A stretch of 64,000 nucleotides of DNA from an uncultured Erysipelotrichaceae bacterium. GTDB lineage: Bacteria; Bacillota_I; Bacilli_A; RFN20; CAG-288. The DNA lies in the NCBI GenBank assembly GCA_902772915.1, contig CACYCE010000022.1:98353-162352 (forward strand). The letters run 5' to 3'. Made by a program: the position numbers and the translations under genes. The notes below the pieces were generated by a model, which worked only from the letters and a program-made list of their open reading frames with translations, was not told the DNA's origin and did not search any database. Within the stretch, counting starts at the first letter, position 1; every line of letters begins with the position of its first letter. This document shows, piece by piece, positions 36,017 to 39,486 of the stretch.

Positions 36017-37594
36017 ATGAATAAAATACTTGCAGAAGGGTTTCTGAAATATCTAGATTCTTACGTTACGTGGATCGTAATTCTCATTTTGGTCGCGGTG
36101 ACCTTTTTTGTCGTTTTCCATTACGCTAAAAGATATTTCACTCACAAGACTATCGTAGAAATTTATTTCGATGGTAAGAAGAGAATTAAAAAATATAAAC
36201 ATTACAAGATCGGTTCAACTATCGATACTAAGAACTTAAAAATTAAAAAGAAATATCCACAATTGAAGATTGAATCAATCACTTCTCAAGCGGATATCGA
36301 AGAAGGCGATATTCGTTCTTTCAAGATGCCTAAAGGCGATGTTCTAGTCACTTATGTTAAAGCTAGTGAACCTATTAAAGAAGGTCATCTGTATACTTCT
36401 CAAGTTTTGCTCCCTCTAGGAAAGAGATTTGCTCTAGCTAACGATGAAGTAGTTAAACCTGTCAACATTTTAGATTTAACGGATATCATTAATCACATTC
36501 AAAAGAGCAATACCGATACTTCTAATTTCCCTTTAATCAACAGATATAAAGGTAGAACTTTCTCAGACCGAAATGTTTTGGTTTTATATTGTGGGGAGAC
36601 TATATATTCGTTAGTTATCGAACAAGGGGGAGTTTATAAATTCCTACTTAGGTTAGATGCGTCTTACGCTAAGAAAGAATTATCTCACCTTCCTTCTATC
36701 TCCGCTTTAGAAGAGGATATCTATTCATTTATTTTCGATATGGAATATATGAATTACGATGAGCTTACTCAGGTTCTAGATTATTCTTATTCTTATGTTT
36801 ATAAATTAACTTACAAGCTTGAAGGGGCATCTTATATATATAATAAGGAAGAAGTAGAGAGAAAGAATTCTCTAATCTTACATTACATCGACGCTTTAGT
36901 AATTGAATTAGATCCTCTTTACGATCGTAAGATTTTAGAAGCTAGAAAATATAAAGAGAGTTTGATTGAAGCTTATAAGAAAGAAAATGAACTCGACAAA
37001 GCTTTCTACGCTCCTAGAGATTTAGTTTACTCTGACTTAAAGAAGTTCGACGATAGTTTCTTAGGTAGATTCTTCGAGGATGAATTTAAGATTATACCTG
37101 ATTATAAAGATGATGTCTTTGTAGAGGAAGAAGTCAAAGTAGAAAAGAAAAAGACTCTTCCTACTATTGAAGAAGAATTAGCAGATTTAACTCCTATTAC
37201 TCCTTCAGAGTTAGATTTAGATACTTTTATCAAATATATTATGGATAGAAAAGACATGGTGTCTTTAACTATTAAACTCACGAAGGATATTTCTAAATCA
37301 CCTGTGCGTATGCTTTATTTGAATCACACATTTTGTTTAGTCAATAAAGGGAAGTTCGCTTTGAATTTCAATTTACGACTTTCACAAGAAGAAGCGGATA
37401 AGGTCGCTAAAAAGCATTCGAGTATGAAACATATTTTAGTTAACAATCAATCTGATTGGTATAAGATTGGCTTGGATAAATCTTTTAAAGATTACCAAGA
37501 ACTCTACGAATTAGTTTTAATTTCTTATGATTATTCTAAGAGAGTTTTCTATTCTGAAAACGACTCGTTATCTGATACGACATCAATGATTTAA
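36017..37594 (+). CDS. hypothetical membrane-anchored protein (single N-terminal TM, K/E-rich)
   Basis: 525 aa. One N-terminal TM (VTWIVILILVAVTFFVVF). No catalytic motif recognised. Confidence 0.5.
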   Translation: MNKILAEGFLKYLDSYVTWIVILILVAVTFFVVFHYAKRYFTHKTIVEIYFDGKKRIKKYKHYKIGSTIDTKNLKIKKKYPQLKIESITSQADIEEGDIRSFKMPKGDVLVTYVKASEPIKEGHLYTSQVLLPLGKRFALANDEVVKPVNILDLTDIINHIQKSNTDTSNFPLINRYKGRTFSDRNVLVLYCGETIYSLVIEQGGVYKFLLRLDASYAKKELSHLPSISALEEDIYSFIFDMEYMNYDELTQVLDYSYSYVYKLTYKLEGASYIYNKEEVERKNSLILHYIDALVIELDPLYDRKILEARKYKESLIEAYKKENELDKAFYAPRDLVYSDLKKFDDSFLGRFFEDEFKIIPDYKDDVFVEEEVKVEKKKTLPTIEEELADLTPITPSELDLDTFIKYIMDRKDMVSLTIKLTKDISKSPVRMLYLNHTFCLVNKGKFALNFNLRLSQEEADKVAKKHSSMKHILVNNQSDWYKIGLDKSFKDYQELYELVLISYDYSKRVFYSENDSLSDTTSMI

Positions 37595-37662
37595 AAAATA
37601 TTAAAAATTTTTAAGTCATTTTTAAGTTAGAAGTCCAAAATAGTTAGTAGGAGGTCTTTATA

Positions 37663-39486
37663 ATGAAAAAGAAATATTCATTGATAATTATAGGAGGGTT
37701 ATTATTAACCTTAAGTTCCTGCAACGTACAGAGCCCTTTTAGTTTTAGCTCTTCTAATTCTTCTACATCAAACACTTCAAACACTACATCTAGTCAAACA
37801 ACTAGCGCTTCTACTTCTAGTGATGGGAATTTCGTCTATACCGATAAAGCTTATTATTCAAAAAATTACGAGGATAAATATAAAAGTTATACCGCTCGTG
37901 AATTAAAATTCAAAACTTCTAGCGAAGGTTATTCTTTAGGAAGAGATGTCTTCCAAAAGCAGATGGATCAAGATGAAGATTTCGCTCGTTCTTTTGGAGG
38001 CGAAGGTAAAACTTATATGCCTTCTTTAGGAGCTTCTAAATTGCTAGTTATTCCTGTAGCCTTTTCAGGAACTAGTTTAATATCTAAACGCAATGAGAGC
38101 GACATTAGAAATCAAATATATAAAGCTTTCTTTGGAAGTGAAGAAGATGTTTACTGGGAATCGGTAAGTTCTTATTATTACAAAGCATCTTACGGTCAAT
38201 TAGATATTCAAGGGGAAGTCGCTCCTATTATGAATTTCAATTATTATTATTCAAATAAGAGAAGTTCACCTTTTGGAGCGGAGGCTGCAAGAACTAGTTT
38301 TAACGAGGATACATTTATTGCTTATTTAACTAGATACGCTTACGATTTGTATTTTAGCGGCTCTTCTCCTTTATACAATTATGAAGATTTCGATTCTAAT
38401 GGAGATGGAATTATAGATGGTATTTACTTTGTATCTTTAGAGGATCTAAGTGCGACTTCTGATAAGGAATTAGATTGGGCGTTTACTTATTGGTCTACTT
38501 TAGATTCTAATTATACTCACTTAGGAAGTTTCTCGTGGAGTTCTATTAACTTTTCTACATACAATAAAGGAAGCGAAGATAAACCCGATTCACACACTTT
38601 CATTCACGAGACTGGTCACATCTTAGGTTTAAATGATTATTACGATCCTTCTTATACTGAAAATAGCTCTAACTATTCTGGAGGACCTACTATGCAAGAT
38701 AACAACATCTGCGATCACGACCCTCTTTCTAAATATCTATTAGGGTGGATCGATTTGGATGTTATAGATTCCTCTACGCTCTTAGATCAAGGTGAGCAAG
38801 AATTTGAATTACCTTCTTTTGAAGAAAGCGGGAAAGTTTTACTTCTAGCTAATTCCTATAACAATACGAGTTTGGATGAATACCTATTAGTCATTTATTA
38901 CACCCCTACTTATTTAAATGAAGCGGATAGTAAAGAAAAATATGAAGCTATCTTAGGTATCGATCAAGAAGGCGTTCAAATTTGGCACGTAGATAAATCT
39001 GTTTACGATACTAAACACTATGAGACGACTTCTTCTAGATGGCCTTATCAACGTAGCGAAGTAACTGAGTGGTCAGTTAATCCTGATAATAATATGTATA
39101 TAAATGAAGAAGGGAAGTTATCTTGCCAGAGTAATACAGAGGGTTACAACTACTTGATGTTTACGTCTACTAATAATTACGCTCAGATAGAATCGGACAT
39201 CTTCACTCATCCTGAATTAGAGATGATTAGAAAAGATACTATCTCATCATCTTCAGAAGCTTCCTCATCTTCATTATTCAAAGAGGGTGATACTTTCAAT
39301 GGAGATAGTGATATTTATAAAGATTTTAGTTTCTATACCACTTCCAAGGATATAGATGAAAAAATTTATAACACTAACGAGCTAGTAGAGAAGGCTTATA
39401 TCCAATCTTCCAAAGAAAATTTAAGCTTCAGCTTAACTGTAAATAGTCTCTCAAACAGCGCAAAAGTTACCATAAAAGCTAAATAA
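37663..39486 (+). CDS. lipoprotein zinc metalloprotease, InhA/M6-like
   Basis: Lipobox LSSC and S/T-rich linker. HETGHILGLNDYYD matches the M6 immune-inhibitor-A type HExxHxxGxxDxY zinc site. Confidence 0.55.
   Translation: MKKKYSLIIIGGLLLTLSSCNVQSPFSFSSSNSSTSNTSNTTSSQTTSASTSSDGNFVYTDKAYYSKNYEDKYKSYTARELKFKTSSEGYSLGRDVFQKQMDQDEDFARSFGGEGKTYMPSLGASKLLVIPVAFSGTSLISKRNESDIRNQIYKAFFGSEEDVYWESVSSYYYKASYGQLDIQGEVAPIMNFNYYYSNKRSSPFGAEAARTSFNEDTFIAYLTRYAYDLYFSGSSPLYNYEDFDSNGDGIIDGIYFVSLEDLSATSDKELDWAFTYWSTLDSNYTHLGSFSWSSINFSTYNKGSEDKPDSHTFIHETGHILGLNDYYDPSYTENSSNYSGGPTMQDNNICDHDPLSKYLLGWIDLDVIDSSTLLDQGEQEFELPSFEESGKVLLLANSYNNTSLDEYLLVIYYTPTYLNEADSKEKYEAILGIDQEGVQIWHVDKSVYDTKHYETTSSRWPYQRSEVTEWSVNPDNNMYINEEGKLSCQSNTEGYNYLMFTSTNNYAQIESDIFTHPELEMIRKDTISSSSEASSSSLFKEGDTFNGDSDIYKDFSFYTTSKDIDEKIYNTNELVEKAYIQSSKENLSFSLTVNSLSNSAKVTIKAK

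Follow-up and report, generated by a model that had tools for sequence, protein, structure and literature searches.

An M6-like lipoprotein gene linked to opp and its membrane-anchored, YjbR-like neighbour in an uncultured Erysipelotrichaceae bacterium

Zinc peptidases of the M6 and M7 families, the Opp oligopeptide importers and the small proteins of the YjbR/MmcQ family are the described systems with which we compared two adjacent genes of an uncultured Erysipelotrichaceae bacterium (contig CACYCE010000022.1 of assembly GCA_902772915.1). Both genes lie within a stretch of 64,000 nucleotides (nt) of this contig (positions 98,353 to 162,352), hereafter the window, which has a G+C content of ~32-34% and uses the standard bacterial code. 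The first gene (36017-37594, + strand) encodes a protein of 525 amino acids (aa) that we call X, and the second (37663-39486, + strand) encodes an M6-like lipoprotein of 607 aa. Both open reading frames begin with ATG, and a spacer of 68 nt (37595-37662) lies between them. We propose, with a probability of about 0.65, that these are two real, co-oriented genes belonging to different units: the lipoprotein would be a surface protease that feeds the Opp system encoded next to it, and X would be a gene of the conserved backbone.

Among the M6 peptidases (MEROPS M6, thuringilysins), InhA2 of Bacillus anthracis (PDB 4yu5, 4yu6) is a secreted zymogen of ~750-800 aa, whereas the window protein is shorter, lipid-anchored and carried on a serine/threonine-rich stalk, and, beyond the catalytic core, its domains are not those of InhA2. 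Its gene accompanies an opp operon, and we do not ascribe to the protein the antimicrobial-peptide role of InhA-type enzymes. Snapalysin, the small neutral protease of Streptomyces (M7; PDB 1c7k, 4hx3), has a zinc motif identical in form (HETGHvLGLpDhY vs HETGHILGLNDYY in the window), but the match spans only ~45 residues at E ~0.08, and snapalysin is a single-domain secreted enzyme of 132 aa. In lactococci, the cell-envelope proteinase PrtP produces oligopeptides, OppA and OppBCDF import them, and the intracellular peptidases PepF and PepO finish the process. The window resembles this system in having a surface protease, Opp genes and pepF, with peptidase genes clustered with opp. This likeness is one of gene neighbourhood only. 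PrtP is a cell-wall-anchored, subtilisin-like serine protease unrelated to M6.

Known members of the YjbR/MmcQ family (PF04237; for example 2fki, Pspto_3016 3h9x and DR2400 2a1v) are soluble, single-domain proteins of ~110-140 aa, while X is anchored and contains two YjbR-like copies, termed D1 and D2, in addition to an N-terminal beta domain, a long helix and an acidic linker. D2, and D1 by internal homology, match this family by Pfam, PDB profile and Foldseek, and X shares with it the C-terminal motif W-Y-x-x-x-L-D...E-L-Y...S-Y. On the basis of similarity to the C-terminal domain of T4 MotA, YjbR/MmcQ proteins are predicted to bind DNA via a MotA-like "double wing" (PMC7641849). In addition, the X profile detects a group of transmembrane-anchored, tandem YjbR-repeat proteins of other Firmicutes at E 1e-19 to 1e-4 (among them P0139, P0146, P0148, the six-repeat P0143 and P0149; here and below, P numbers denote proteins and L numbers loci). 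As in X, an N-terminal anchor with a basic C-flank precedes 2-6 YjbR-like domains, but these proteins lack the N-domain, helix and linker of X and occur in other genomic contexts. They are likewise uncharacterised.

The M6-like lipoprotein gene and opp

The sequence-only reading had placed two genes here, 68 nt apart and the first with a ribosome-binding site, and both are confirmed. The M6-like gene is a real gene and not a chance reading frame, since at least 262 homologous clusters exist, mostly in uncultured "Bacilli bacterium" assemblies. A Shine-Dalgarno-like AGGAGG lies 9 nt upstream of its start. The protein begins with MKKKYSLIIIGGLLLTLSSC, a signal peptide with a lipobox; this signal (MKKKYSLIIIGGLLLTLSS-C20) has the basic n-region, hydrophobic core and lipobox of the form [LVI][ASTVI][GAS]C. 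In an alignment of 108 homologues, to which the conservation given below also refers, the lipobox cysteine C20 is nearly invariant. The signal peptide and lipobox (L-S-S-C20), together with the disordered serine/threonine-rich stalk that follows at aa 21-66, occupy 37663-37860 (+), and the predicted local distance difference test score (pLDDT) of the model is below 50 over aa 1-66.

The zinc site lies in HETGHILGLNDYYD (38605-38646) and reads, in translation, H315-E316-T-G-H319-I-L-G322-L-N-D325 (38605-38637, +). This corresponds to HExxHxxGxxD, the variant with aspartate as the third zinc ligand that is found in thuringilysins (M6) and snapalysins (M7) (PMC12237041), and the extended metzincin motif of M6 is therefore present as HETGHILGLND (aa 315-325). 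No variation occurs at H315, E316, H319, D325, Y327 or M344, and almost none at G322. M344 (38692-38694), 19 residues after D325, is a candidate Met-turn residue, judged from the sequence alone.

With a profile of the 108 homologues, InhA2 (4yu5) could be aligned across the HExxH region (E 1.9e-10), and so the alignment to M6 peptidases on which the sequence-only reading had hung its assignment was obtained. When the single sequence was compared with the PDB by phmmer, it gave a marginal snapalysin match alone, and InhA2 was reached only by the family profile. Several homologues bear the name "M6 family metalloprotease-like protein", and PF05547 is present in about one quarter. The AlphaFold model built from the same alignment has a pLDDT of 80.8 and a predicted template modelling score of 0.84, and shows the disordered stalk followed by a catalytic domain and C-terminal beta domains; the fold of the catalytic domain is closest to a solved M6 enzyme. 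The earlier description as an InhA/M6-like lipoprotein metalloprotease is thus upheld by profile, motif and fold: the closest family is M6/InhA-like, and the protein belongs to a distant, lipid-anchored branch of it. The 607-aa protein is very probably a protease. It is a divergent addition to a family already described, and its functional context is also of a well-known kind. Searching the literature on M6 proteases in Mollicutes or Acholeplasma brought up nothing relevant.

In one related locus (L011) the M6-like gene is duplicated. A 463-aa copy (4205-5596) and a 91-aa fragment (5813-6088) directly follow X and are probably a disrupted paralogue, and a full copy of 539 aa lies further downstream (8001-9620). 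An intact ATPase_2/AAA_14/DUF234 gene (6257-7648) is located between the two paralogues.

In the window, the M6-like gene heads oppABCDF. The opp operon (39693-47826, +) was assigned by the Pfam families SBP_bac_5, BPD_transp_1, OppC_N, ABC_tran and oligo_HPY. It consists of oppA, which encodes a lipoprotein (LASC) matching the NCBIfam OppA family of MMSYN1_0169 type (39693-41843), followed by oppB (42027-43973), oppC (43973-44965), oppD (44971-46731) and oppF (46744-47826), all on the + strand. The same linkage was found in all seven loci that were informative (the window, L008, L009, L012, L010, L001 and L025), a count that leaves out four further loci that end before the neighbour is visible. 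The M6-like gene stands before oppA in L009, directly, and in L008 and L012, with a small DUF3899 gene in between; in L010, L001 and L025 it directly follows oppF. At most one small gene thus separates it from opp. A scan of the window for terminator-like hairpins found none in the gaps that separate X from the M6-like gene and the latter from oppA. A pair of strong ones, with stems of 13 and 15 bp (41887-41918 and 41946-41982, +), follow oppA and precede oppB, an arrangement consistent with attenuation giving an excess of OppA over the permease.

Other genes for peptide handling are also abundant in the window, including pepF (27202-28983), a second OppA-like lipoprotein gene (29018-30973, -) and, downstream of opp, an adjacent pair of TldD/PmbA-type metallopeptidase genes (49724-51127 and 51127-52413). 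We suggest that the 607-aa protein is a lipid-anchored, metzincin-type zinc endopeptidase of the M6/thuringilysin lineage, which an N-terminal diacylglyceryl-cysteine and the serine/threonine-rich stalk would hold on the outer face of the membrane. Most likely it would cleave extracellular proteins or peptides, and the resulting oligopeptides would be captured by the OppA lipoprotein, the product of the next gene, and imported by OppBCDF. The sequence-only reading had offered virulence or nutrition as the role of this locus; nutrition fits the linkage to Opp, and no evidence gathered here bears on virulence or on the breakdown of antimicrobial peptides.

Two subunits of the transporter are much longer than typical Opp subunits. 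OppB has 648 aa, with the permease domain only at aa 410-604, and OppD has 586 aa, with its ABC domain present as two matched stretches; OppC and OppD are similarly enlarged in related loci. Between oppF and the tldD/pmbA-like pair are two reading frames without a Pfam family (47829-49178, 449 aa; 49206-49604, 132 aa), and the only match of the longer one is a sub-threshold hit to HEPN_RES_NTD1.

Domains and genomic context of X

X is also a real gene and not a chance reading frame, since its orthologues are recovered at E 1e-60 to 1e-146. A Shine-Dalgarno-like AAAGGA is located 7 nt upstream of its ATG. Exhaustive HMMER searching of 1.84 billion representatives identified 13 full-length clusters of 486-535 aa, and the X profile also retrieved ~55 more distant proteins, many of which have an N-terminal anchor and 2-6 repeats. 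Word-index searches, with a single sequence or a six-sequence profile, gave three clusters, indicated no co-occurrence of X with the M6-like gene and missed orthologues of 35-37% identity. Negatives from such searches are unreliable for low-complexity proteins rich in lysine and glutamate, and the exhaustive HMMER search together with context look-ups reversed the picture of X. A scan of genome contigs with a profile from a 3-sequence X alignment gave a single locus, and a metagenome scan with an 8-sequence alignment extended the locus set; 13 X lineages were then defined at <90% identity.

The sequence-only reading had described X as a protein with one N-terminal transmembrane helix and no recognisable domain. 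The helix is borne out: YVTWIVILILVAVTFFVVF (aa 16-34) is the sole hydrophobic segment, and the single transmembrane anchor (aa 16-36; 36062-36124, +) is followed by a conserved basic K/R-R-x-F. The statement on domains is not, as two diverged YjbR-like domains are present. After the anchor comes a small, basic, beta-rich domain (aa 40-118; 36134-36370, +), for which AlphaFold2 predicts strands over aa 42-115 at low confidence. This N-domain has an isoelectric point (pI) of ~9 in 10 of the 13 representatives and contains the invariant motif F102-x-M-P105-x-x-D-V109. The first YjbR-like domain, D1 (aa 150-272; 36464-36832, +), was recognised by hhalign to D2 and, at pLDDT 70-83, is modelled better than any other part of X. 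Long helices (aa 277-329) and then an acidic disordered linker (aa 331-399) make up the AlphaFold2-predicted region between the two domains (aa 273-399; 36833-37213, +), in which pLDDT is below 50 at aa 323-403 and the linker is negatively charged (net -3 to -13) in 12 of 13 representatives. The second domain, D2, lies at aa 400-515 (37214-37561, +). D1 and D2 are homologous to each other (hhalign probability 95.6%, E 1.1e-8), and their similarity is also visible by BLAST.

Several matches connect X with the YjbR family. PF04237 matches five of eight X orthologues, with a best E of 4e-4, and the orthologue profile finds E. coli YjbR (2fki) in the PDB at E 0.0065 as well as DR2400 (2a1v). Foldseek with the model of X places 2fki at the top (E 9.5e-3, probability 1.0, TM-score 0.61 on the target), followed by 3h9x and 2a1v. 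Four of the distant relatives score above the Pfam YjbR cut-off (P0139, 42.7; P0149, 44.7; P0138, 35.4; P0146, 31.3 bits) and therefore bridge X to the family. We are confident, though not certain, that X is a membrane-anchored protein with two YjbR-like modules. Most likely it would serve as a scaffold at the membrane face for a macromolecule, whether protein or nucleic acid. Its gene belongs to the core set of one small clade, to which it is confined, and orthologues occupy the same backbone position in 13 lineages. The architecture is an uncharacterised one of a known domain, and the YjbR label already exists in one database, where JGI names an orthologue "predicted DNA-binding protein (MmcQ/YjbR family)".

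Distant relatives of X were also seen next to very large genes. In L017 a giant surface-protein gene (2-4588) is followed by a gene for a transmembrane-anchored, tandem-YjbR distant relative (4590-6161), and the same order occurs in L018 (2347-5829, then 6001-9795); the giant proteins carry Flg_new, RCC1, Ig/fn3 and dockerin domains. P0149 (1264 aa), named "InlB B-repeat-containing protein" at NCBI, combines a transmembrane segment, Flg_new repeats, a coiled coil and two YjbR domains.

Upstream, X had been described as lying immediately after ffs. The two do adjoin, but ffs, the gene for the small signal recognition particle RNA (35868-35956; Rfam RF00169, 55.9 bits, E 1.5e-9), is on the minus strand, and X is hence divergent from it and not downstream. 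The neighbour of ffs is a gene for a tadA-like tRNA adenosine deaminase (35340-35825, -; Pfam MafB19-deam, E 6.7e-30, and dCMP_cyt_deam_1, E 2.2e-25), co-oriented with ffs. Wherever a locus extends upstream of X, that flank carries a tadA homologue on the opposite strand, and an Rfam scan of eight related loci placed ffs(-) beside tadA(-) in all of them. In L001, L005, L006, L012 and L015 ffs and X diverge in the same way, across 59-210 nt. In the window the spacer, as read from the sequence, is 60 nt long (35957-36016) and holds two perfect, back-to-back TATAAT boxes, one on the + strand (35980-35985, with TG upstream) and one on the - strand (35960-35965), which suggests putative promoters of a tightly packed divergent pair. 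A consensus promoter scan found 24 sites where 23.8 were expected, that is, chance level, and its predictions were set aside.

Downstream of X the gene order varies. The M6-like gene follows in six of the 13 lineages (window/L019, L008/L030, L009, L011, L012 and L024); in L008, L009, L011 and L012 the unannotated genes of ~530 aa upstream of the M6-like genes proved to be X orthologues of 35-37% identity. In five lineages (the L001 group, L005, the L025 group, L029 and L031) X is followed by rpmE and metG. Here the context of P0002 and P0003 reads serS - MFS - tadA(-) - X - rpmE - metG ... secE - nusG, with no protease beside X, and in L001 and L025 a block of opp and the M6-like gene lies just upstream of serS. 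The remaining two lineages (L013/14, and L015/16 from Ca. Scatoplasma merdavium) have lipoprotein genes and then opp after X. We considered these lipoproteins as divergent M6 proteases, but neither the M6-family hidden Markov model nor Pfam gave a match in L013-L016. An identical X protein occurs in L001 and in L002/L003, and an M6-like gene is nearby in L001 only. In view of the rpmE-following lineages, the opp-M6 block beside serS and the identical X with and without an M6-like gene, X behaves as a core backbone gene and the protease gene as an accessory one, which accompanies opp and does not follow X. The conserved backbone is serS - membrane protein - tadA(-) - ffs(-) | X(+) - rpmE - metG. 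In the window, rpmE (L31; 58786-58998, +) lies ~21 kb downstream of X and is followed by metG (59184-60791, +).

Alternative explanations

The sequence-only reading had regarded the two genes as a module and named their co-occurrence in related genomes as the check, with a lack of co-conservation as the refuting outcome. The check gave a divided answer, the pair being adjacent in six lineages and split by rpmE in five and by other lipoprotein genes in two. A functional surface module, in which X would be a membrane partner of the protease, help its maturation, or inhibit or regulate it, gains from the fact that the six lineages share only 31-40% identity and yet keep the genes adjacent and co-oriented, with short spacers of 38-215 nt and, in the window, no terminator-like site between them; L001 and L025, where the pair is split, still have an M6-like gene 4-6 kb ahead of X. 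We nevertheless find this reading improbable. X retains its position and full length where rpmE is next, the same X protein exists with and without a nearby M6-like gene, the lipoproteins after X in two lineages are unmatched by the M6 profile, and the protease travels with opp. In the predicted topologies, moreover, the membrane separates the bulk of X from that of the protease: the protease, a lipoprotein, would lie at the surface, and the charges flanking the helix of X predict that X faces the cytoplasm.

That prediction would be overturned if X were a type II (N-in/C-out) surface protein and the pair a true surface module. Foldseek relates part of the X model to beta domains of the Gram-positive adhesins SraP and YwfG, P0149 joins an N-terminal transmembrane segment, true Flg_new (InlB B-repeat) and two YjbR domains, and distant relatives adjoin giant surface-protein genes. 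However, the adhesin matches come from model regions with a pLDDT of ~45-60, and the N-domain of X, examined as a candidate InlB B-repeat, reached only 4.8% probability in hhalign against the Flg_new region of P0149. In all 13 representatives the N-flank of the helix is neutral or net negative (<=0) and the C-flank, at 0 to +5, carries the conserved K/R-R-x-F, all of which makes an outward-facing X very unlikely. It is also doubtful that X is a membrane-tethered, "double-wing" DNA-binding regulator or a nucleoid-membrane tether, which could control the downstream lipoprotein and opp genes. The predicted DNA binding of YjbR/MmcQ by similarity to MotA, the JGI label, the basic N-terminal domain and the place of X at the head of a lipoprotein/opp cluster in eight of 13 lineages all point in this direction; against it, DNA binding by the family is itself a prediction, D1 is acidic in every lineage (pI 4.6-5.8 in 13/13) with D2 near neutral, and the next genes in five lineages are rpmE and metG. 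Because of these charges we do not commit to DNA as the ligand of X.

For the lipoprotein, the main alternative to nutrition is a host-interaction or immune-evasion protease, comparable with B. thuringiensis InhA, which acts on antibacterial peptides, or with the IgA and mucin peptidases of gut bacteria. We judge this unlikely, although less so than the readings above, given the low identity to InhA2 and the differing domains outside the catalytic core, the repeated tight linkage to an oligopeptide importer and the lack of host-related genes flanking the M6-like gene.

Our preferred reading, of a protease that feeds Opp and a separate backbone gene, must itself be set against several findings. 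The window lipoprotein scores below the cut-off of TIGR03296 (64.7 bits vs 110.8, at E 1.3e-17), has no match to Pfam PF05547 (Peptidase_M6) at E <=1, and shares 18% identity with InhA2 over an alignment of 356 of 695 residues. X of the window matches PF04237 (aa 436-505, E 0.025) at 15.7 bits, below the cut-off of 30.1, and its AlphaFold model, made from three sequences, is poor overall (pLDDT 52), although D1 scores higher. That X is oriented N-out/C-in with its bulk in the cytoplasm is probable by the positive-inside rule, which here draws on charges only, and the nutritional role of the protease with Opp, read from gene neighbourhood, is somewhat favoured over other roles. X stands immediately upstream of lipoprotein or opp genes, with short spacers, in eight of 13 lineages, which makes a functional link conceivable. 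Finally, all lineages compared belong to one narrow group of uncultured Bacilli, and the conservation of gene order may therefore partly reflect shared ancestry and not selection.

Surrounding genes and implications

Relative to five other lineages, in which X and rpmE are adjacent, the window contains a variable block (37663-58698) between these two backbone genes. This block includes the M6-like gene, opp, two unknown genes, tldD/pmbA, gpx, galK, an ATPase fragment, tetR and lacZ. The ATPase fragment, a 99-aa reading frame (54653-54952) with the P-loop GVRRCGKSSL, resembles the truncated N-terminus of an AAA_14/ATPase_2-type gene and is probably a pseudogene. Upstream of the block, a 217-aa multi-pass membrane protein (34709-35362, +) is encoded convergently with tadA, their 3' ends overlapping by 23 nt; it has no assigned family in the window, and its homologues in L012 and L015 are annotated DUF2238. 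A BspA-type leucine-rich repeat protein of 691 aa (10313-12388, -) lies amid an otherwise plus-strand region. Similarly, a 453-aa reading frame without a Pfam match (60872-62233, -) is found between metG and nusG in surroundings that are otherwise plus-strand.

In conclusion, our analysis corrects the anatomy of this locus with respect to the strand of ffs and the domains of X, reassigns the protease to the opp unit and defines an orthologue set for X. A weak theme of secretion or surface function runs through the context of X, which is fixed beside ffs and often heads lipoprotein genes, and two distant relatives directly follow giant surface-protein genes. It is tempting, but highly speculative, to see in X a new class of cytoplasm-facing, tandem-YjbR anchors, core to a group of uncultured, Mollicute-like Bacilli, through which the membrane would be coupled to the making or export of neighbouring surface lipoproteins; X would then be a platform for targeting or chaperoning, or else a tethered regulator. 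If true, this would be the first defined cellular role for the YjbR fold. The YjbR/MmcQ domain, known from small soluble proteins, is thus also found in tandem arrays with a membrane anchor. One of these is a core gene of fixed position in a single clade, which provides a handle on what this fold binds. Uncultured, reduced-genome Bacilli harbor a sizeable and poorly annotated branch of M6-like lipoproteins, with more than 260 clusters, most of them without a Pfam call. These lipoproteins may be read as the extracellular arm of Opp-based peptide feeding, which would fit organisms of limited biosynthetic capacity.

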